A stretch of 58,623 nucleotides of DNA, filler included, from Dirinaria sp. TL-2023a (lineage: Eukaryota): the NCBI GenBank assembly GCA_051941275.1. It is 5 parts of 5 records of this genome, joined end to end, with 100 filler letters (N's around TTAATTAATTAA, not from the genome) between each part and the next. Parts side by side here need not be neighbours in the genome. Positions count along the whole stretch, not along the records: positions 35,275 to 46,901 come from JAVEBF010000830.1; 4 more parts are not named here. One strand, 5' to 3'. Under the pieces are notes generated by a model that worked only from the letters and a program-made list of their open reading frames with translations, was not told the DNA's origin and ran no database searches. The stretch's first letter is position 1, and each line of letters begins with the position of its first letter. This document shows positions 25,419 to 46,901 of the stretch, in pieces. Position numbers and translations under genes: made by a program.

Positions 25419-26710
25419 ATGGCGGTACCGGACCCTGCGCCTTATAATGACCGAGGATACATACTTATTATAATCGCGGTAATCACGTTGGTTTCGGCGC
25501 TGTCTTTACTCTGCTCAAGGTTCTGTGTCCGTACGAAGATAACAAAAAATCCTGGTTGGGATGATCTTTTCATCGTTCTTGCCGTGGTAGGGAAATACCA
25601 AGCCATCTCCGAGATATATACTCGCTAACAAGAAGGCAAGATGACAGCCGTGGTCGCAGTAGGCATGGGAATGACTGCAGTACATTATGGCCTTGGACGA
25701 CACATCGAAGTCTTGCCGCCAGAGCACATCAGCACAGTGATCAAATGGGACTTCGTCCAATCACTTCCTTTGGGACTTGCTGCCATGTTCACCAAGATAT
25801 CCGTCTTTTTCTTCTTGCGCCGTCTCTTTCTGACCACGCAAACGAAGTGGACCTGGAACTGGACCCTGCACTTTATCAATGCCGTTAATATTGCAGCGAA
25901 TCTAGCTTCTGCTAGCACGGTGCTACCCCAATGCAGTCCTATCAAGAAGCTCTGGGATCCTACCGTGCCTGGTAGTTGCTGGTCTCCCGATACCCAAAGG
26001 GCAATTGGGATATTCCAAGGAGGTGATCTTCTAGCGGAAAGGAAAAGCTTGCCAGCAGCTCCAACTAATCTTCAAGCCTAGTAACGTCTGCCTTTTGCGA
26101 TTTCGCCTTTTCATTTCTTCCAATAGTTTTCCTGTGGAATGTGCACATCAGCTTCAGGATCAAACTTGGTATTTGTTCTCTGATGGGGTTAGGCTTCTTG
26201 TCGGTCTCCCTCTCCTAATATCTGAAAATAAATATTTAACATCTCGACCTTAGCACGGCAGCATGCGCTGTTGTAAGAACGGTGGTGGCAAACACGGAAG
26301 ATTATAACGACTTCACCTGTAAGTTGCTACCCGAGTGGAGATTGCACACACCTTACCAGGGTTTCTAGACAGCGACTTAGTTTGGAATATCTGGATTTAG
26401 TGAGTTATCCGCCTACAAACAATTTTTCCCCTCTTGCATTGAATGGCCTGATTGATCTGAGAACAGCCTGGAAACCATGCTTGGTATTGTTGCAGCTTGC
26501 TTACCAACAGTTCGGCCCTTCTTCAAAACGCAGTTCATCAAAAGGTACTCGAGCAAATACTGTTCGAGCGAATTTTTCAGCCGTAGACACGTCACCAGGG
26601 GCAGGATACACCAGGACCAACATGGGTTCATCTTTTCCAGCGTACCCCGCGAAACGCCAGGGTCTTCTGCGACCAAGGGCAGTGAGAGCAAGATCGCTAT
26701 GTTGGTGTGA
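25419..26710 (+). CDS. PTH11-like integral membrane protein (no CFEM), multi-exon
   Basis: SRFCVR..GWDDLFI, YGLGRH, TKISVFFFLRRLF, QCSPIKKLWDPTVPGSC, DFAFSFLP, ETMLGIVAACLPTVRP; five GT-AG introns keep the frame. Confidence 0.9.
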
Positions 26711-35274: not shown

Positions 35275-35356
35275 CCCCCGTATCGTTCGGCATGACGCCC
35301 GACGCATCCGCCGTTTACTGACGCGCCCTCCCGGCGTGAGGCGGGGTCTTTAATAG

Positions 35357-35752
35357 GTCATTGGTCTGGTGCGAGCGTTGAGGTCCACGTTACCCGTTCA
35401 CGGGATCTCGATCAATGCCGTTGCGCCCGCGGCGACGATGACGAACTTACTCCCGATGGATCTCGCGAGGCCGCTCATGGCTGCTGGGTTGCCGGTCAGC
35501 GATGCGCACATGGTCGGGCTCGCAGTCGTGTATTCCGCGGTTGCGAAGCAGCAGCGGTTCGTGGAGCCGTACGGTAAAGATGACGGCGTCGAGAAGCAGG
35601 GTAGATGGAACGGGCGAACGATATTGACGCTGGGGGAAGATTATACGGAGATGGAGGAGCCGATTGCGGATTTGAGGCCCACGTGGTTTGGGTGGAAGAA
35701 TACTTCGCTCACTCGTCGGCAACAGGCTACTGCTGATTTTAGAGAACTGTGA
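35357..35752 (+). CDS. prx4: Short-chain dehydrogenase/reductase, last exon only (prx4-like)
   Basis: After TAG acceptor: [92 protein letters not shown]. Closely resembles the recalled Penicillium prx4 C-terminus. Contig begins inside the preceding intron. Confidence 0.8.
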
Positions 35753-36233
35753 CCTAGGTAGGCAAGTGGTTCGCTTTCGTATAGATCATGTGAAAGGTCG
35801 ATTTTTGTCCAAGAGGTGTGAAGCCTATCTGCATGTCGTCTGTAAGTTGTGACTGACGAATATGATGTTTTATCGTTTGCTTGACAGAGACCTGAAAGTC
35901 TTTTTGGAGGGTAATTTTGGTAAAGAGGATGACTTACCAATATCAATGATTAGAGCTCGTTCCAGCTCTAGCATTTGAGTGATTGGAGGCAGTAAAAAAA
36001 GGCACAGATGACGAGTCCCAGGGTCCCATGACTATGAACGTACACACCTTAGTATATAATGTAGTAAATACATTCTTGACCCTTCGTACATTTCCATGTA
36101 TCTAGAAATGGCGAACGCCCGCCCCAAAATCCTTAACATTCAACTCACCTCCCGAAAACGACCTTCGCGAATATCGACATCCTTGTGACTCGAAACCGAA
36201 TTATATTCACTTGCCACTGTCATAACTATAGTC

Positions 36234-37974
36234 TTACAGTTTGAATCCTCCAGGGAGCAAATGCTGGAATACACCATCCGGGTCTGCAATGTCCTTAGCA
36301 ACCCCGTATGTAGCGTCAAGATAACCGATGACTTACCATATTTCTTGGCAATTGCCTTCAGTTTTGGGTAATTCGCCCCATCGCCGTACTTGGGAAACAC
36401 GTTTTTGGTCTGGAAAGGTGCGGCATCGTTGATCCAAACAGAGTCATAGTACAAGCCTCTAGTTTTTGCCCTCTGATCCAGAGTGTCGACTGCGTACTCG
36501 ATAAATTTATTTACGGTAGCATCGTCCTTGGCATCTTCCCAATTTGCGCCATAGAGCACAGCTGTTTAAGTCATTAGCCGTCATGACTAAATCTTCTGAA
36601 CGAGCTAAATAGGGAAAGGCTAGTCTCGACCCACAATTAATGCCGCTGTCATTTGGATTATGAAGACCAATTGCATCTCCACCGGCAGCCTGCGCAGCTT
36701 TGATCATGGCTGACGTGAATGTCTGGTAAGTGTTTGTGACCTGTAAGCCCCTCACGGATTTCAATTGGGGCGAGGCGGCTACGCAATCAAACAAGGTGGT
36801 GTTGATCAAGCGCACAGCTTCAGCGCTTGATTTGGTCGCTGTTGAGGAGAATAGTTGCCTGAACCACGCGATTAGGAGCTGCCGCAGGAGAGGATATATT
36901 ATTTCAGCTCACCTGAGATTTCCGACGCGGAAATTTGCTGGGTTGGTGTCATTATGTAGTCCGTTGATAGTGTTGCTAAGCCTAAGGTCTGAAAACGTTG
37001 CGGGAATCTTGGTGAAGTTGCTCAGCGACGCTGGGTTAGGGTCGGGACCTTTGTGCATGTAAATTGAGTATATCGAGACTTCTCCGCTAGTTGCGTTGAT
37101 GAGAATCGACGGATCGCTATGCGCATAAGGGTCACTGGAGCCACCTTGGGCTACGGTATAACTGGCATACGCTTCGACGATATCATTGAGAGCTGAAGCA
37201 CTATAAAGTGCTGAGCCGCCCCACATTTGCTTGAGCGACCAGGTCTTCATGTCAAACCTCGTAACGATCCCAAAATTACTTGAGCCTCCTTTCAAGGCCC
37301 ACCAAATGTCCGAGTTGGTCTGAGAGTTGGCATTGACGATAGTGCCATTAGCTAGAACAATCTCGTAGTTGATAATGCTACTTGCGCCCCATCCATACTC
37401 AGAGCTGAAGTAACTGAAGCCGCCACCGAGCAGCAAGCCCGACACGCCTACAGCCCCAAACCGTCCTCCGGCTACGGCGAGATTGTCGTTTGCAAGAAAA
37501 TCATAGACAGGTGACCACCTAAGACCGGCGCCAATCTGGACGACACTCTTCCCTTGAGAGTATCTCAGACTTGTCAAACGTTCGGTTGAGACAAGAACTT
37601 CGTTGGCGAGACCATTTGCTCCGGGAACTGGCATGTGTCCACCACTTCGTAATGCGAACGGGTGTTGATATTTGCGAAGTATAGCGAGGCCATTCGCTAT
37701 CTGTTGGGCAGAGATAGGTTCAAAAATGCAAGCGGGAACCACTTGGCAAGTTTCCGACCAAGGCACTAAACATATTTGAGACTTTCGTTCTCATTCGCGT
37801 TAGTGTAGCGGACTTACCGACAGTCTCATTAGCAAATGAAGAATCTGTAGCAAAAAAGGTCACAGATGGGAACTTTGCCTCTAACTCTTGACAAGCATTG
37901 GCCTGCACGCTGGCACCCGAAACTATTGAGAAAAATGAGAGTAAAACGGACAGAACACAAATTTTGTAGACCAT
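36234..37974 (-). CDS. prx3: Secreted FAD-linked oxidoreductase (FAD_binding_4/BBE-like; prx3-like), 5 exons
   Basis: Signal peptide; [15 protein letters not shown] (covalent-FAD His motif), [59 protein letters not shown]. The prx3 symbol rests mainly on position beside ari1. Confidence 0.85.
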
Positions 37975-38626
37975 GATGGCGATCGTAACAGAATTCAGGT
38001 GGCGGCTTATTGCTCAACGATCAGAAACTTCTGCTTAGCGGCGAAAGCTTTTCATTTATAGCCGTAAAAGAATGCTACACACCATGATCGGAGAATTTCG
38101 TTCCCACGGGTTTGGTTCCTGCATATTGCATGCTGTGTGCCTTGCAGGAGGCACGCGAGCGTAAGCATGGCACTCCTTCTTCGCCTATGCACAGCCTATG
38201 CACCGCCTACGTAACTATCGGCAGTGATATCCGTACCGTTTCTTAGGCCTCGACATGGAGGATTCTCCCAATTAGGCTGGTGACCGAAGCGTATTGAGTG
38301 ATGACTCCACTGATGTAACATAAGTCTGCAACCGCAGGCCTCAAGTCCATGTGGCACAGATCCGGGCATTGTCCTAACAGGGTTATCAGTTGCCTTCCCA
38401 AAGGTTCACTCTCGGACTTACCTGATAGAGATCGAGTATTTCGTACGTACGTCATGTAATCCGCGACTGAGCGTTATAAAACTATCGGGCTAGGGTCTTA
38501 AGAGAAGGCGTTTACCACGCGGTAATAGAAATAAACCCCGGGTGGAAAAAAGGCCCGCAGCGGCAAAAGTCGGCATTCTTAACTTTGCTTCACTTGTTTA
38601 GACTTTTCCTGGCAAGGTTGATCGAT
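37975..38626. promoter_or_regulatory. Putative bidirectional promoter between the FAD oxidase and aristolochene synthase
   Basis: Head-to-head ATGs separated by 652 bp; TATAAA at 38475; repeated AACTATCGG at 38213 and 38480. Confidence 0.55.
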
Positions 38627-39803
38627 ATGGCTACAGCGACGGCAACTTATTCCCACCTACTGGACGGATTTGGCAATTATCCAAGCGTTGGTACTTTCAA
38701 AGCTTCAGAGTCCCTTCCCCTAGACTCCAACAATGAGGTCGACCACGCACCAACTGCCTGGAAGTTTTCGTGCCATCCTAGACTCCAAGAGGTTCAAAAA
38801 GAAGTAGACGGATATTTCTTAAAAAATTGGAAATGGTCGAGTGAGAAAGTAAAGAAAGTGTTCCTGAATGCAAAGTTCTCGGAGGTTACTTGCCTCTACT
38901 TTCCGTTAGCACTTGATGATAGAATCCATTTCGCGTGCCGGCTTTTGACGGTGTTGTTCCTGATTGATGGCAAGTACTCCGAGTCCGACACCTGCTCTCA
39001 CATTAACGAGAACATAGATCAGCTCGAAGACATGTCTTTCGCGGACGGCGAAGCATACAATGCAAAGCTCATTCCGATTTCACGGGGGGATGTTCTTCCA
39101 AATCGTACGCAGCATACTTTACTTGCAACAAAGAACACCACTAACAGGGATCAACAGGTTCCAAGCCGGAAGAGTTCATACTGTACGACCTTTGGGAGAG
39201 CATGCGCGCTCACGATCGTGAGCTTGCGGAAGAAGTATTGGAGCCTACATTTACCTTTATGCGATCTCAAACAGACAGAGCCCGCTTGACCATCAAAGAA
39301 CTGGGAAATTACCTCATCTACCGCGAGAGGGACGTCGGGAAAGCGTAAGTTTTAAGAATTGCGTTCCTTGTTGCACCGCTCATGTCATCAACAGCCTGCT
39401 CTCAGCGTTGATGCGTTTTTCCATGGGAACCAGGATTGCGGCAGACGAACTTGAAGGTATGAAAGCTTTGGAAGCCAATTGCTCGAAGCAGCTCTCTGTG
39501 GTCAACGATATTTACAGCTTCGAGAAAGAAGAAAGGGCATCACGAACAGGGCATCAAGAAGGTGCATATCTTTGCTCCGCTGTCAAAATCCTGGCTGCGG
39601 AGACCAACCTTGGAGTCACGGCCACGAAACGTGTACTTTGGACGATGGTGCGCGAGTGGGAGAGTACTCATGACCAGCTAGTCGCAGACAAGCTACAAGC
39701 TTCTGAGGGATGTTCCGAAGCAGCCAAATTATACATGAAGGGTTTGGAATATCAAATGAGTGGCAACGAACAATGGAGCAAGACCACGCTCAGATACCGA
39801 TGA
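38627..39803 (+). CDS. ari1: Aristolochene synthase (class I sesquiterpene cyclase); 4 exons (38627-38969, 39018-39104, 39158-39344, 39395-39803)
   Basis: CHPR..EVDGYFL.NW, AKFSEVTCLYFPLALDDRIHFACRLLTVLFLID-DQLED (Asp-rich motif), KPEEFILYDLWESMRAHD, YRERDVGKALLSALMRFSMG, NSE motif NDIYSFEKE, MKGLEYQMSGNEQWSKTTLRY. Long stretches match recalled P. roqueforti Ari1. Confidence 0.95.
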
Positions 39804-40783
39804 ATCGAGCAGCGGAGTTTCAATCTCTGCATCATGCCCGGCACCTGCTGTAACGCGAAGTTGTGGCAGGAAATGGGAAACTTGGAGGTTAGTCAGAACG
39901 GCCAATGATAGTGTAGATAGTATACTCATAGACCAGCTAGAGTAGAAGCCATAGAATCAATAAGGTAGCTTTGGCAGCACCCTGCAAGTTCATGGGATCG
40001 TCAGCTGAGAGGTCGCAACGGAACCTAAGGTACAGCTGCAGCTGAGGTACCTTGGGTACCTTATCTTACTGCAGGTAAGATACCTCAAAGTGCCATAGGT
40101 ACCTTACCTACTTGACCTTATGACCGTTTCTTCTGAAAAACCCGGCAGTCGAACCAATCGAAATGTATTGTATCGGCTAAATCTCGGTAATTGCCCTGAC
40201 CTCCCTGAGTCTTAGGGAGGCTCGGAGGTACCTTATGTTAGGTAGGCTGGTAGGCAGCCTGCAGCCCGTCCTCTAACTCTTGCAGAACGCCACCCGGAAG
40301 GGATCCATGTGAGCAGATAGGTACCTTAGAGTGCCGCATACCTGACATCACTCATCGCTGTCGGACGTCGCTCCAAAATACAAATGCGACAAGGAAGTAC
40401 GGTAGTAGTACAGACGTTTTTGAACATCAAACGTTCTTTCAGCTGTGACGAAGCCATTAGTAAGATGCGTCACACCTACGAATGACAATGCATCTCTCCA
40501 CCGGGTGCTTTCCTATTCTAGCGATTTGCAGCTGTTCCTTCCCGTAATGTTGCACTCAGGAGGCAACAACAGTATTGTCGGATCGGAAATATCCATAAGT
40601 CCGACATGTCCGACATGTCCCACATGGCGATGTGCTTGTGGCCTCAAACCACTGTCTTTTGTTTGGGCCGATGCCGATGGGCTGTAAAAATTGTTGATCT
40701 GATAACCTTGCAACATTCCACACTGACCCCTCACGATACCATCTTTCATTTTGACCTTGTTGGTATCAAAAAACTATCTCAAA

Positions 40784-41851
40784 ATGGCCTTCACTACAGC
40801 TCATCAGAACAAGGCAAAGCCAGGACCCTATACACAAGCCCATCTCAATCAGAATGGCCCAGGCGATGCTCGTCCAACGGGTCTCCAAATTGTCGAAGAC
40901 AACGGCCTGATAGGCAAACTCACCGACAAAGTATGCCCATCTCAAATCCGTCTTGTTGACCCGCTTTTTTGACGACTCAAGGTCTTCTTCATCACCGGAT
41001 GCTCAGGCGGAATCGCCGTGGAAACTGCACGGGCTATGGCCGCAACAGGTGCCCGCTGCTTCCTCGGAACGCGTGATCTGAAGAAAGGCGAAGCAGCCTT
41101 GAAAGACGTCCTCGAGCCAGGCCGCGTGGAGCTCATCCAGATAGACGTTGGCTCCCTCGACAGCGTGAGGGGGGCAGCAAAGACGTTCCTCTCCAAGTCA
41201 TCCACCCTTAACGTGCTCATCAACAATGCAGCCATCATGGCCTGTCCAGAGGCTAGATCTGTCGATGGCTTTGAGTCGCAGCTTGCAGTCAATTACCTAG
41301 GCCATTTCCTGCTCTTCAAGCTTCTCGAACCAACTTTACTCAAATCCTCCACCCCAACCTTCAACTCCCGCGTCGTCAACGTTGCATCAGCCGGCCACCA
41401 TACATCAGGCATCCACTTCGACAACATCAACCTCGAGGGCGAGTACGAGCCTTGGACGGCCTACGGTCAGAGCAAAACAGCCACAATCTACATGACCAAC
41501 GAGATTGAGCGCAAGTACGGCAAGCAGGGTTTGCACGGCTTGTCTCTCATGCCTGGCGGTATCGCGACTGAGCTGCAGCGATACGTGCCCGATGACTTGA
41601 AAAAGGCCTGGTCAGCTGGAGAAGCGGTACAAAAATTCTGGAAGAGCACAGCGCAGGGTGCTGCCACGACCATGGTTGCGGCGATTGGTAAGGAATGGGA
41701 AGGTAAAGGTGGTGTGTACTTGGAGGACTGCCAGGAGGCCATACCAACACCGCCTGGGGGGGAAATGTCGATCGGAGTTGCTGCACATGCTTTTGATCCG
41801 GAAAAGGAGACGAAGCTGTGGGATGTAGCGACTAAGATGGTGGGGCTCTAG
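40784..41851 (+). CDS. prx1: Short-chain dehydrogenase/reductase (WWOX/retinol-dehydrogenase-like; prx1-like); 2 exons (40784-40930, 40982-41851)
   Basis: YTQAHLNQNGPGDARPTGLQI, TGCSGGIA, NNAAIMACPE..DGFESQLAVNYLGHF, catalytic YGQSK, QGAATT..GKEWEGKGGVYLEDCQEA, HAFDPEKETKLW. Confidence 0.85.
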
Positions 41852-44405
41852 GCTTGTAGGTTTGTCCGTGCATTTTGTTCATTTAGTAGGACTAAGTGAG
41901 AGGACGGTGCTTTCTGCCTGATGCTCTTGCTCCTGAGCTTCGACTCTCCTGCATAAAGTAGAAATCTGCGGAACAACCTACCTAGGCAGTAGGTAGTCAA
42001 AGAGAACTAAAGAAAAACCGATGTCTATCGTTCTCCTTTGCCGCGAGAGCATACTATACCGGATTGAGAAGTAGCTGGAGGTAAGTAGCCTCCCAATTAT
42101 TGCAACGCTCTATGAATGTGCTATGTGATCGGGCTAGGTCATCTTCGTCATAATAACGTCCATTCGATGTCTCTCCAGAATGAATGCGAAGACATTTTGT
42201 CGTCATCCTTTAGAACCTACACCTGTATAACAGTGTCATGCTAAGGAGGCCTGCATGATGTATGAGCGTAGAACCAGCTGTGGCTGGTTCATTACTGAAT
42301 GGCACGTTTTTGCTGGGCGTTCAGAGCCACACGTTCGGACTTGCAAGGATCTTGATGCACGATACTCGGCTTGCAAGCCTTGCCGTCGACGCCATTTGCT
42401 GCTGTATTTCATGTTTCGAGTAGATTGAATAATGCCTTTCAGGAACCCCGGTAGTCTCGTCACTGCTGCCTTGTATCAGTGAGCTTGGTCTGCTATTAGA
42501 CGAGGCGACTTTTAGAGCCAATTCGATTTGCTCCTAGTGGTAGGGAGTTGAAGGTGGGCTGTTGGGAAGCCGGGACGGGGTCGAAGCACGTGGCAACTAT
42601 CGAGAGCTACACCAGTTGCGGCCGAATTCATATACATCTACAATTTTAGTGTTCTTTCCAAGCTCACTTAAAGCTCCGCATCATGGTGGTTAGGAAGGAG
42701 GGAAAGCTAGCGTACTAACGGCCTTTGCAGCTGGCTGTTGGATAGCACTACCTTAGGTTACTATATTATTTTGCTTCTACCCCACGCGTTGATCGAGGCC
42801 AACGCGTAGGCGTCGCGACGTCTTAGTCTTCACATCGCCGCAAACAAAGGTTGTTTCAGCTTATAATTCCTCAACAATCCAGAGCCTAGCAACCTCGCTG
42901 TCGTAGCTCTTCGCTTCGTTGCACGATATGCGGTCCCACAACACCTTTCCTTCGTTGGGTGCTTTGTGGAATCATAACACTGGCGTTTTGTGAAAGCGCA
43001 ATCCACGATCGATAATGTGTTCCATGCTCTTGCATGTCTTCCCTATAATATTATTCCTAGAAGTATCAGCTTTCTGACCAAGGATATGGTCAGATTGAAG
43101 TGTTCGGTTATTTTTGATTTCTTTCATGAGGACTATGGCCTCGAGATGACGTGGCCCGGTGAACCAACGATGCCCATAACTTGTAAGGCAGGGATCGGCA
43201 GAATCAGTGCTTTCTGATTATCAAAAGCGGTGACTGCTATGTTGCCACTCATTATTGATGGACCGCGCCCTCAAAGCATGAAGCTTAGCGTCTTCAAGCG
43301 GACCGGAATGGGTAGTAGAAGGTATATGGAAGCATAGGAAACATGTTCGGCTGTCTTCTAGTATTCGCCGATCTGTCGTACATTGATACTCTGGACTCCT
43401 CCGCCTTCCGCGTCCATCTTGGCACTCCTGAGTGAGGAGCATTAAAAAGTAAGATTAAACAACAACCGGAGCCTTGGTCACTTGGCGAATGCCCAGTGTA
43501 TCAGAAGGCTATTCAGCAGAATCGCCCTTGGGTGCATGTAAGTGACCTTAGAAAGTGATTCAGCCATCAAGTTGGAGTTTTCTGTCGAGATTCATCGAGT
43601 GTTGCGCGATCGGAGCGTGGCTGAAGCCCATCGTCTTGGCATTATTTGAGAGTAAGAGTAATAGCTTACCGTTCACGCGTAAAGTTAATAGTTCAGTAGT
43701 AAGGTAACTAATATTCCAGGGACTTTGCGCGATTTCTGATTAGCAGCTCTAAGCTTGGTTTAGGTGCGGAGAATTCGAATGAAAGCGTTCTAAATCTTTG
43801 ACTTGGCATTGCTATTGGAGATTATTCTCCTAGCGGCCTAGACCACTCATTTACGAAGTGTCTTCTCAGGGTCGACTAGTGTATGAACTTTACCTTATAG
43901 TGGCCAGGAGGCCCATGACCCCAAGTGATTTCCACCACACAAAACACTAGGCGATTCTGGAAAGAACCGTATGAAATTTCACGTGTTAGTTCTGCCATCA
44001 GATTATCAGAAGCCAGCAGCCCTCGTTAGACAGGTACCAGCTGCAATAGCGCCAGCCCGTCGCCACTAGTCAACCCTACGGCCAACATTTAGCAACGCAC
44101 GGCAAGCAACGCACCGTACGCACGGCCATGTGTTCCTGCAAACTAAAGTATTTTGTCTGGGGAAGACGGGAAGCATGTGCTATGCGTTGCTTCCGAAGCG
44201 AAGTCGAGACTCGCGCGGCTGCTCTTGGCTTCCACGGCATATCAAAGCTGTGATTGACCATTTATTATCCTTCGTTTTCCACTTGCGCCAGGTCACGAAG
44301 CGCGGCCTAATTGCTCCCTGAAGGCCTCAACATTAACTGCATCGCTGCCTTTTCAAATTCGATCAAGTCTTTGACGCATCCAGTGCTGTAGCTGCTCGAC
44401 CAGCG

Positions 44406-45726
44406 ATGCATCCATCAGCAGAAGTCATCGCGAGTTGGCCAGCGCCGAACTTTAAGGACCCGGTAACGCGAGGCTCAGCGCTCACTGTCGTTAATGTCAT
44501 CTTCATAACTCTTGTAGTCCTCGTTGCTGGGTTGCGGTTCTACACGAGGTTGCGCATTACCAAGAGCTTTGGTCTGGATGACTGGATCATTGCCATTTCT
44601 CTGGTACGATCATCAACTTCACCCTATCGTCCAACAATAATTCGAATCTCTCTAGGTCCCTACTTTTGCGCTTACTTGTGTTGTACTCGTGGCTGATAAT
44701 AATTTTGGATGGAACCGTCATTCGTGGGATCTTCATCCAGAGAGGGGCCCACCAGGCTATAAGCTGTGCATCACTGCACAGATCCTGTTCTTCTGGGCAG
44801 CGACATTGAACAAGATATCTCTCCTCTGCTTCTACCATCGGCTCACCGGCCCCTGCACCCCGAAATGGTATAAATTCAGCATTTTCGGTGGAATCATCTT
44901 CCAGATCACAATGGTTTTGGCGTATTTCATTGTGGCTCTCCTGGCTTGTCGGTAAGTATATCCTTGGTTTGATTGCTCTTTGGCTAATCACAAGGTATAT
45001 AGGCCCCTCAAAGCATTTTGGGAACCTCTTGCGACTTATCATTACACCTGCATCGACGAAGGGAAGTTGATGCTCTCCTTTAGCATCATAACGATATTCC
45101 TGGACTTCATTATCTTACTCCTGCCAATACCCATTGTATGGAAGTTGCAGCTCTCTCGCAAGCAGCGCCTGGCTATCCTGTCCCTTTTTGGTGCTGGTAT
45201 AATTGTTTGCATCGCTGGCATTGTCCACGCATACTTCGTTAATCTCGCACTTGTAAAATCTTATGACGAGACGTGGACCGGGTAAGCGGGAGTCCGTTAA
45301 GCTCAGGAGTGGTGTCAGCTAATATTGTGCTAGGTGGCCACTTTGGATTTGCTCTGCAGTAGAAGTCGATCTGGGCATCGTAGGTACATGAAGACATCGG
45401 ACATGGACACTGTTGATCTCTTGTAGCTTTGCGTCTCAGTCCCCGCAGTTCGACCGCTCCTCGCGATATATTTCCCCCGTCTACTAGAGTCTACGCGACC
45501 ACGCGCGAGGCCCATAAAGGAGTGGTATGATTCAAACGAAATTTCTCCTCCGGCATCAACGCCTGGAAAAGGTAGTGTATCAGCGCCCAGGAAAGGAAGC
45601 GTGCCAGAGCTTCGAGGAACCGAATACTTTGCTGGGGAGAAAGCTGAGGGCACCAAAGACCTTGAGACAGGATTAGCCGATAAGGTGAAGGTGGGAAACA
45701 CCACCCACGACATGGTGTACACGTAA
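44406..45726 (+). CDS. PTH11-like integral membrane protein (no CFEM), 5 exons
   Basis: SWPAPNFKDPVTRG, LRFYTRL..GLDDW, GWNRHSWD, KISLLCFYHRL, CRPLKAFW, DFIILLLPIP, VEVDLGILCVSVPAVRP; TAA at 45724-45726. Confidence 0.9.
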
Positions 45727-46409
45727 GTGCTCGCATGTGGGCGAAAGCCACCGAGGTCGATGAGGTAACAGGCGCTATGAGGTGGGTGTGGTGGGTTCAA
45801 GGAAGGGGGAAAAGTCAAATGTCATAAGTAGGAATTAGTAGGAATTGTGATAATTGTTCATATTATTGAGGAAACAAAAAGACCTGCCCCGTACCTCAAC
45901 CGGTCACTCCGCTGGAATACGTTTTCGATAGTCTTATTATTGAGCGATCGACCCAATTTATGCGCTGGCTATACCTGCAAATCTCCAAATTGAGGTGTGA
46001 TTTAGCAACAACCCGGTCGACCGCAAAATGCAGGCTATGCAGCCCTATCGGCCCCACAAAGCATAAGGCAAAGCTTGAATGCATCAAGAAACATGTGGGA
46101 CACCCGACCTGATCGCTTACTCGATGCATTATTCGACGTTTCACATCTGACTTTGGTAGGTTGAATTGGTAGGTAATTTTTACCTGCAGCTCCTTGGCGT
46201 CCGAGGCGTTCTCGGGGTCTTGGCGGCTGTCTTGGCGGCTGTCTTGGCTTAACACCGGCTCGGGGCGACTTCAGTGCTCGATCACTGACCGCAGCTATTG
46301 AAAGGGTGATACCAAGTTGTGTGTATTCGTATCTCACTAGAGATAGGCCAATGTGCACGCTTTATCTACGTGGGACTTAAAGGCCCTTTGGAAAGGTACG
46401 ACTGGACCG

Positions 46410-46901
46410 ATGGCTGCTCCAGCCTCCTACATCGTACTCCTCAGTCCTCCACTCGCAACGCCGCAGCACATCCAAGAGATTGCGGGTCTGCCTCAGACTC
46501 CTGCAGCCAGGCCTGTCGATGAAGAAGAGTCAGACGACGAGGAACCAGAGGTGAAAGAGAATATCGGAGATAAGATCACCAGCTGTTGCATTGTCGACAG
46601 TCCGACCAAAGATGCCATCTCCAAATGGGCTCAAGCTACAGGCCAAAGGATCAAACCAATGATCCCCATCATCCCAACCGAGTCTGCTTCAACCGCAAAT
46701 GCACTTCGGACCAGATACCCTATGCCCTACTTCCTCTACGGCGACATGGCCTCACCTCATTTCCTTGCCAACGTGCTGGATCTCGATCCAGCTCCGACCT
46801 TACAACATGCAACGATTGATAATTATTGCATCAGGGCGTGGGGCAAGCGTCAAGCGCTCATCCAGGGCTCTCAGAGCTCAACAGCCGACGGGCAGGTGTA
46901 C
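46410..46901 (+). CDS. Gamma-glutamylcyclotransferase/AIG2-like domain protein, truncated at the contig end
   Basis: YFLYGDMASP..LANVLDLDPAPTLQHATIDNY..RAWG..AL resembles the YFFYGTL...L.PA.I.GY..K.WG.YPAL pattern. Confidence 0.65.

Follow-up and report, generated by a model that had tools for sequence, protein, structure and literature searches.

A candidate eremophilane biosynthesis locus in a Dirinaria metagenome-assembled genome, divergent from the PR-toxin-type prx core

Related eremophilane clusters

The described system closest to the locus reported here, a run of four genes in a 58,623-base window from the metagenome-assembled genome (MAG) of Dirinaria sp. TL-2023a, is the PR-toxin (prx/prt) cluster of Penicillium roqueforti and P. 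rubens. In P. roqueforti, the order is prx1, prx2, prx3, prx4, cytochrome P450 (P450) genes, and then genes for a beta-barrel protein, an acetyltransferase, a P450, a regulator, and a P450 (PMC10144355). The Dirinaria locus shares with this cluster three protein families and their order, the active-site residues of the cyclase, one intron position, and a prx1 gene at the cluster edge. However, its genes are far more divergent than those of four non-lichen classes are among themselves, its host is a lichen fungus, and the P450s, acetyltransferase, and isomerase of the PR-toxin cluster are not visible in the window.

Pathways derived from aristolochene, as worked out by heterologous expression, all open with three enzymes: the cyclase, a "common P450" acting as the C-8 hydroxylase, and a "common SDR" (short-chain dehydrogenase/reductase) that forms the 8-ketone (PMC10686045, PMC13647387); IsaA, IsaC, and IsaB are the corresponding Isaria enzymes (PMC13647387). 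The sporogen AO-1/deoxyphomenone clusters (aoTc-aoL4 of Aspergillus oryzae, isa of Isaria felina, and DPH of Hansfordia) likewise combine an aristolochene synthase with a common SDR (PMC10686045, PMC13647387, PMC11980549) but, by their descriptions, are without a Prx3-type flavin adenine dinucleotide (FAD) oxidase or a Prx1-type SDR. The hypoxylan A cluster of Hypoxylon rickii (hrTc-hrL8), likened here by its description, has in HrL4 an FAD-dependent dehydrogenase that pushes side-chain oxidation past the alcohol (PMC10686045, PMC13736955) and without which that oxidation stops (PMC10686045), but it also contains an extra SDR and an aromatase P450. A 2026 survey of 371 eremophilane clusters recognizes a core, Emp2/9/4, that leads to 7-epi-neopetasone, and sorts clusters by the P450s acting next. 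It places Emp3, the Prx3-type FAD enzyme, late, where it is thought to oxidize eremofortin C to PR toxin, and it treats Emp6 (a P450), Emp7 (an isomerase), and Emp8 (an acetyltransferase) as the key enzymes of the PR-toxin "group A" (PMC13736955).

Among lichen fungi, a lecanoromycete MAG from Alectoria sarmentosa was described in 2021 as carrying a terpene cluster similar to PR-toxin genes at 62% identity, a likeness that we also take from the description (PMC8355462), and mycobionts of Sarcographa tricosa and Graphis, grown in culture, have yielded eremophilanes including petasol and sporogen AO-1 (PMC12113121). Literature searches combining lichens with PR toxin or aristolochene returned no gene-level description, judging by titles and the opening lines of abstracts, and searches combining Dirinaria with sesquiterpenes returned only unrelated matches. 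The main text of the 371-cluster survey does not mention "lichen" or "Lecanoromycetes," and its supplements may list lichen genomes (PMC13736955). The original prediction, made from the DNA alone, had called the pathway undescribed. This stands insofar as we found no gene-level account, but not in full, given that the proteins are already deposited as hypothetical and that a PR-toxin-like lichen cluster and mycobiont eremophilanes have been published (PMC8355462, PMC12113121). The locus is thus a divergent addition to a known kind of cluster, in a lineage with precedent in its chemistry but with undescribed genes.

We interpret the locus as the prx1-side half of a lichen-fungus eremophilane cluster, an old and divergent sister of the PR-toxin-type prx1-prx2-prx3(-prx4) core, and assign this interpretation a probability of roughly 0.75. 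It provides a concrete candidate locus for eremophilane biosynthesis by lichen fungi, a link to genes that was not found in the literature searched.

A prx-like core on a single contig

The window consists of five separate contig pieces, near-equal in size and descending from 11,679 to 11,622 bases, which are split by eight N runs of 44 bases placed in pairs around a short TTAATTAATTAA linker. Since the contigs are only joined by these runs, neighborhood across the spacers carries no meaning. The four genes lie on the fourth piece (contig 4; positions 35275 to 46901, 11,627 bp), within 35357 to 41851. Gene models were built from stop-to-stop open reading frames (ORFs), Pfam matches, and direct reading of the DNA. 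The principal features are as follows.

35357..35752, plus strand: last exon of an SDR, 131 codons plus stop (ORF), a candidate common SDR in the prx4 position
36234..37974, minus strand: FAD-linked oxidase, Prx3 orthologue, 502 amino acids (Pfam FAD_binding_4, 1.5e-20; identical to P0121, Q9191_005428)
37975..38626, no strand: divergent intergenic region of 652 bp between the oxidase and cyclase start codons, presumably a shared promoter
38627..39803, plus strand: aristolochene synthase, ari1/prx2 orthologue, 341 amino acids when spliced (from best PDB match, identity, and tree)
38970..39017, plus strand: cyclase intron 1, putatively GC-AG (GCAAGT...ATAG), 48 nucleotides, in frame and stop-free (boundaries read from the DNA)
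40784..41851, plus strand: SDR, Prx1 orthologue, 338 amino acids (Pfam adh_short, 5e-25, 88.5 bits; identical to P0361, Q9191_005430)

As the original prediction had proposed, four adjacent genes of these kinds are present, and their visible parts contain no frameshift or internal stop. The oxidase, cyclase, and second SDR are public as hypothetical proteins of the Dirinaria sp. TL-2023a MAG under the consecutive tags Q9191_005428, 005429, and 005430, and in P. rubens prx3, prx2, and prx1 likewise occupy consecutive tags (N7525_001919, 001920, and 001921). Adjacent tags were also found for cyclase and oxidase in Drepanopeziza (L3040_007996/7997) and Monosporascus (DL768_002043/2044), and for cyclase and SDR in P. 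cf. viridicatum (N7449_005922/5923). The window is collinear with the P. roqueforti order, and the contig stops, on the prx4 side, at the point where the P450s would start.

The best named matches of the three complete genes are Penicillium Prx2, Prx3, and Prx1, which, together with three gene trees and the gene order, supports their orthology to prx2/ari1, prx3, and prx1, also as originally proposed. The same holds for the claim that the proteins would be similar to, and not identical with, those of P. roqueforti: full-length identities are 72% for the cyclase against PRX2_PENRF, 68% for the second SDR against P. roqueforti prx1 (P0499), and 61% for the oxidase against P. chrysogenum P0123. 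With identities of only 61 to 72%, the possibility that this is the P. roqueforti cluster itself was rejected.

The cyclase is predicted to form aristolochene from farnesyl diphosphate. Its four exons (38627-38969, 39018-39104, 39158-39344, and 39395-39803) are separated by the putative GC-AG intron and by two GT-AG introns (2 and 3). The deposited model, P0001 (357 amino acids), keeps intron 1 and so separates the two DDxxE aspartates by 16 extra residues, an insert absent from the Protoblastenia, Penicillium, and Nemania proteins, and the spliced 341-residue model matches all homologues. We therefore rejected the 48-nucleotide stretch as a true coding insert, as no aligned homologue has it and it interrupts DDxxE, and infer that 38970-39017 is an intron. 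This would correct the deposited model, in which the retained intron disrupts the metal-binding motif. The three longer cyclase pieces all had P. roqueforti aristolochene synthase (1DI1/1DGP) as best PDB match (E values of 2e-46, 1.4e-30, and 1.7e-66), with the A. terreus enzyme second. Of the active-site positions of the P. roqueforti enzyme, 14 of the 14 checked are conserved, with DDQLE aligned to D115-D116-E119 once the intron is removed and with N244, S248, E252, Y92, F112, F178, W334, R200, K206, R340, and Y341 identical. Furthermore, Penicillium has an intron at the site of the third intron of the Dirinaria cyclase (after ...DVGKA), where a P. chrysogenum model retains 17 residues.

Searching with the last cyclase exon returned 163 proteins at an E value of ≤1e-10 among 657 candidates from a collection of 5.8 billion proteins. 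The closest other cyclase among the matches listed belongs to a Protoblastenia rupestris MAG (84% identity over the last exon, 78% over the full length), followed at 72 to 78% over the last exon by proteins of Nemania diffusa (75% over the full length), Xylariaceae sp., Penicillium cf. viridicatum, Stachybotrys chartarum, Periconia digitata, Monosporascus, and Drepanopeziza. After these comes a cluster of fragments to which PRX2_PENRF and P. rubens prx2 belong, and the remaining matches listed are at ≤68%.

The oxidase gene has five exons (37974-37818, 37765-36913, 36858-36635, 36561-36337, and 36283-36234, the last including the stop) and four GT-AG introns of 52, 54, 73, and 53 nucleotides. 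The protein scores 73.7 bits against PF01565 (cutoff, 26.4), begins with a hydrophobic leader, and aligns end to end with Prx3, its RSGGH standing opposite RTQGH. The histidine of this R-x-x-G-H stretch is presumably the site of flavin attachment. Among 6451 candidates, 906 proteins matched at an E value of ≤1e-20; the top matches came from the same organisms as for the cyclase, with the addition of P0123, annotated "FAD-dependent monooxygenase prx3." In the gene models of two relatives from ENA/Logan, P0245 and P0366, a Prx1-type SDR (88%) follows directly on roughly 105 residues from a Prx3-type oxidase (74% identical to that of Dirinaria). Since, in the window, the cyclase separates the oxidase from the SDR and these two are encoded on opposite strands, the relative behind P0245 and P0366 must be arranged differently or be misassembled.

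The second SDR has two exons (40784-40930 and 40982-41851) separated by one GT-AG intron of 51 nucleotides. As a query, it returned 5369 proteins at an E value of ≤1e-20 among 6977 candidates. The nearest form a graded metagenome series of 94 to 74% identity (P0241-P0252), which falls in one clade with the window SDR; its public contigs include one of 107,661 bases with the 94% relative and one of 2,072,925 bases with a relative at 83%. Next are 340-residue proteins at 68 to 70%, whose 90% cluster holds the "Short-chain dehydrogenase/reductase prx1" of P. roqueforti and P. rubens. When metagenomes were scanned with the Prx1-type SDR, 80 loci were retained, none more than 54% identical, and the 88%-identical JGI relative was not among them.

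The truncated SDR

Contig 4 begins within the first of the four genes.

35275..35356, plus strand: putative 3' part of the intron of the truncated SDR (read by eye: TACTGAC branch-like site, acceptor abutting the exon)

The TACTGAC site and the TAG acceptor (...TTTAATAG) that precede the exon make it appear that the contig starts inside an intron, and bases 35275 to 35356 are probably its 3' part. Full-length relatives align by tblastn to 35357-35752 only from their own residue 170 to 237 onward, with no match upstream of 35357, so that the N-terminal two-thirds of the protein, including the cofactor-binding part and the catalytic YxxxK, lie off the contig. The exon by itself gave no Pfam hit, and in the ESM Atlas it falls only in generic adh_short clusters.

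Similarity searches place the exon in a small SDR subfamily, with 111 representatives at an E value of ≤0.001 among 1.84 billion. The best match is an ENA protein (67% identity), and the best named representative is BAE64655.1 of A. oryzae RIB40 (65%). Names were looked up for 19 of the 111 representatives and include Aspergillus oryzae, Elsinoe, Bombardia, Ophiobolus, Xylaria acuta, Alternaria, Cytospora, and Colletotrichum simmondsii. The exon is 52 to 62% identical to the SDR part of three Colletotrichum models in which an SDR is fused to an aristolochene-synthase-like cyclase, and the Ophiobolus relative lies on a contig of equal size to the one bearing the Ophiobolus cyclase homologue. 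These fusions and this co-occurrence indicate that the subfamily keeps company with such cyclases. By homology, the truncated SDR is probably the common SDR (Prx4/PrL2/AoL1/IsaB/Emp4) that forms the 8-ketone. In relating it to the published enzymes, we equate "PrL2" of PMC10686045 with prx4 from its position name.

Age of the locus and horizontal transfer

Three quick IQ-TREE trees were built with SH-aLRT (Shimodaira-Hasegawa-like approximate likelihood ratio test) as the only support measure, from rows picked by hand from the match lists. The cyclase tree has 49 rows (46 of the 120 listed, two Penicillium cluster members, and the spliced model), the SDR tree 47 (44 of 120 listed, two Prx1 proteins, and the window SDR), and the oxidase tree 33 (32 of 119 other rows and the window oxidase); the trees omit fragments without names, fused models, and a good number of additional named rows. 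Class labels were looked up for eight taxa and assigned for the other rows.

In all three trees, a long stem with an SH-aLRT of 100 joins the window protein to the Prx proteins, and the Dirinaria protein stands on a long branch, its sister being a very tight clade that comprises Penicillium, Xylariales, Stachybotrys, and Drepanopeziza. Periconia joins the tight clade for the cyclase and for the SDR; the searches gave no oxidase from this genus. The cyclase clade that includes PRX2_PENRF comprises 11 rows (SH-aLRT, 100), with Protoblastenia on the Dirinaria side, and the cyclases of other lichen fungi (Villophora, Lignoscripta, Lecanoromycetidae sp., Peltula, Bathelium, and Pyrenula) fall in other clades of the tree. 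The Prx1 clade comprises 26 rows (SH-aLRT, 100) and is separate from general lichen SDR paralogues; ten metagenome SDRs, 76 to 94% identical (seven compared over the full length), group with the window SDR.

Pairwise identities give a similar picture (PR-type comparison proteins P0003-P0010, P0123-P0130, and P0255-P0272, from Penicillium, Xylariales, Stachybotrys, Periconia, and Drepanopeziza/Hymenoscyphus). Ari1 proteins of non-lichen genera from four classes are 85 to 92% identical to one another, against 70 to 75% for Dirinaria to them, and the corresponding Prx1 values are 79 to 91% (four classes) against 65 to 68%. Prx3 proteins from three classes are mostly 76 to 86% identical (one pair at 70 to 71% and one within-genus pair at 95%), against 56 to 62% for Dirinaria. 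By taxonomy look-up, Dirinaria belongs to the Caliciales and Protoblastenia to the Lecanorales, both in the Lecanoromycetes, and their cyclases differ by 22%, more than those of the four non-lichen classes do among themselves. An approximately unbiased (AU) test on the cyclase data did not reject a lichen-plus-Penicillium clade (P = 0.203), a group that was named after the tree had been seen.

The original prediction had raised the possibility of horizontal acquisition. The patchy distribution of the cluster and the placement of the other lichen cyclases listed elsewhere in the tree would be in keeping with its arrival in the lichen fungus by transfer, and identities of 85 to 92% (Ari1), 79 to 91% (Prx1), and 70 to 86% (Prx3) across non-lichen classes imply that this cluster family either moves or is unusually constrained; a between-class move of a related eremophilane cluster has been proposed (PMC11980549). 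However, the Dirinaria copies are sister to the tight clade at such low identities that no recent donor is apparent among the sampled fungi, the 22% difference from Protoblastenia fits long residence in Lecanoromycetidae, and the grouping of lichen and Penicillium cyclases that was not rejected is the one that a species tree would give. Recent transfer into Dirinaria from the sampled lineages is therefore not supported by these sequences, and we regard acquisition by transfer as unlikely overall. The trees and identities are consistent with either an ancient transfer or long residence in lichen fungi. Recent spread is instead suggested among non-lichen fungi, whose PR-type copies are far closer to one another than to the lichen copies. 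In its widest form, the argument would be that lichenized Lecanoromycetidae carry an old, vertically inherited, and widespread sister of the prx core that lies behind the mycobiont eremophilanes, and that the PR-type clusters of Penicillium, Xylariales, Hypocreales, Pleosporales, and Helotiales are young and were spread by horizontal transfer; we offer this tentatively and consider it rather doubtful. As a deep outgroup to PR-toxin-type genes, the locus brings out the 85 to 92% identity among non-lichen copies and would help to root and date their spread.

Predicted pathway and completeness of the cluster

By homology and conserved catalytic residues, the cyclase would convert farnesyl diphosphate to aristolochene. 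A P450 encoded off the contig would then hydroxylate C-8, and the truncated SDR, if it is the common SDR, would make the 8-ketone 7-epi-neopetasone. The secreted-type FAD oxidase would take a side-chain (C-12/13) alcohol, supplied by another P450 that is not in view, to the aldehyde or acid, and the Prx1-type SDR would take part at a step for which we make no proposal. Judging from the presence of the oxidase, and by analogy with described pathways, the end product is predicted to be a side-chain-oxidized eremophilane. The enzyme roles given in the original prediction are dated in this respect, as Prx3-type enzymes are now assigned to oxidation of the side-chain alcohol, with the 8-oxo step given to a P450 together with the common SDR (PMC10686045, PMC13736955, PMC13647387).

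No oxygenase is encoded on the contig, and these four genes are therefore not sufficient for the pathway. Pfam found no enzyme of the Emp6, Emp7, or Emp8 type on the visible 11.6-kb contig, and the common P450 type (PrL9/AoL4/IsaC/Emp9) is likewise absent from these 11.6 kb, the contig stopping on the side where the Penicillium P450s lie. The PR-toxin-type product that was originally proposed is thus unproven, the P450s, acetyltransferase, and isomerase that define the class having not been found on the contig by Pfam or tblastn. Nothing here shows that the lichen makes PR toxin.

Several observations count against reading the locus as half of a working, prx-related cluster. In the truncated SDR, the prx4 label is only positional, apart from membership of a small subfamily in which none of the 19 representatives looked up (of 111) carries a Penicillium or prx4 name. 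The second SDR is 64% identical to a general lichen SDR (Xylographa), compared with 65 to 68% to Prx1, and only the tree, itself quick, backed by SH-aLRT alone, and made from hand-picked rows, separates the two. This SDR also has alanine in place of glycine in two cofactor motifs, with TGCSGGIA against TGSSGGIG in Penicillium and NNAA against NNAG. NNAA is common to the two aligned relatives P0243 and P0252; the glycine-to-alanine change in TGCSGGIA is not in both, one of them keeping glycine. YGQSK and the upstream serine are present (the classical SDR motifs are TGxxxGxG, NNAG, and S...YxxxK). The cyclase looks active only if the GC-AG intron, which the deposited model leaves in, is removed, and the P0245/P0366 fusion hints at rearrangement or decay in some relatives. 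Pfam detected no P450 on the contig, and a tblastn search with a cyclase-P450 fused model matched the window cyclase only; since any oxidized eremophilane needs at least one P450, the cluster could be a remnant. Finally, the source is a metagenome bin and the contig is only 11.6 kb, for which composition by itself says little about misbinning.

A locus in decay, or a partial remnant that has lost eremophilane production, would account for the lack of a P450 or other tailoring gene in the 5 kb past prx1, for a first SDR cut by the contig end, for a fusion that needs another gene arrangement in a relative, and for a cyclase that requires a noncanonical GC donor. Nevertheless, the complete genes run through 341, 502, and 338 codons without stop or frameshift, the checked catalytic residues are conserved, and the Penicillium P450s lie beyond prx4, exactly where the contig stops (PMC10144355). 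We consequently judge decay to be improbable.

Assignment of the contig to the lichen fungus

The original prediction had tentatively placed the host among lichen-type or related fungi, which agrees with the labeling of the proteins as those of a Dirinaria MAG (Lecanoromycetes), and had called for a comparison of composition among the contigs. When this was made, contig 4 was unremarkable: its GC content (0.495) is no outlier beside those of the other contigs (0.484 to 0.509), and its tetranucleotide correlations with the other four (0.81 to 0.86) compare with 0.83 to 0.88 among those four, a weak measure for 11-kb pieces. The other contigs carry housekeeping genes, namely, PheRS alpha, a GH47 mannosidase, a kinesin, and a WD40/coronin-type protein.

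That the contig comes from an endolichenic or lichenicolous fungus and was wrongly binned into the Dirinaria genome is, we believe, quite improbable. In favor of this origin, the source is a MAG and the contig short (11,627 bp), Xylariaceae such as Nemania carry a PR-type cluster and are a family with reported endolichenic isolates (PMC11820368), and the Nemania cyclase (75%) is only 3 points from that of Protoblastenia (78%). Against it, the trees place all three genes on long branches, apart from the tight clade of Nemania, Penicillium, and others, and the closest relative of the cyclase belongs to another lichen MAG, from a different order. Composition is no outlier (weak evidence for 11 kb), and other public assemblies contain a 94%-identical SDR, on contigs of 107,661 and 21,424 bp.

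The flank beyond prx1

41852..46901, no strand: flank past the prx1 side, an ORF-poor 2.5-kb gap (41852-44336) followed by a Fung_rhodopsin gene (Pfam, tblastn)
about 44337-45282, plus strand: Fung_rhodopsin-domain (PF20684) membrane protein gene with three exons, the first gene past the cluster (Pfam)

The gap between prx1 and this gene has a GC content of 0.478 and unremarkable indices of the repeat-induced point mutation (RIP) kind, and contains no ORF of at least 90 amino acids and no Pfam hit. Across the flank (41849-46901), a Pfam search of 52 ORFs of at least 45 amino acids gave only Fung_rhodopsin above noise, with no P450, acyltransferase, or other tailoring family. As no tailoring enzyme is found there, the cluster ends on the prx1 side. 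A second gene for a membrane protein with the Fung_rhodopsin domain (PF20684) lies on a different contig of the window, at 25629-26078.

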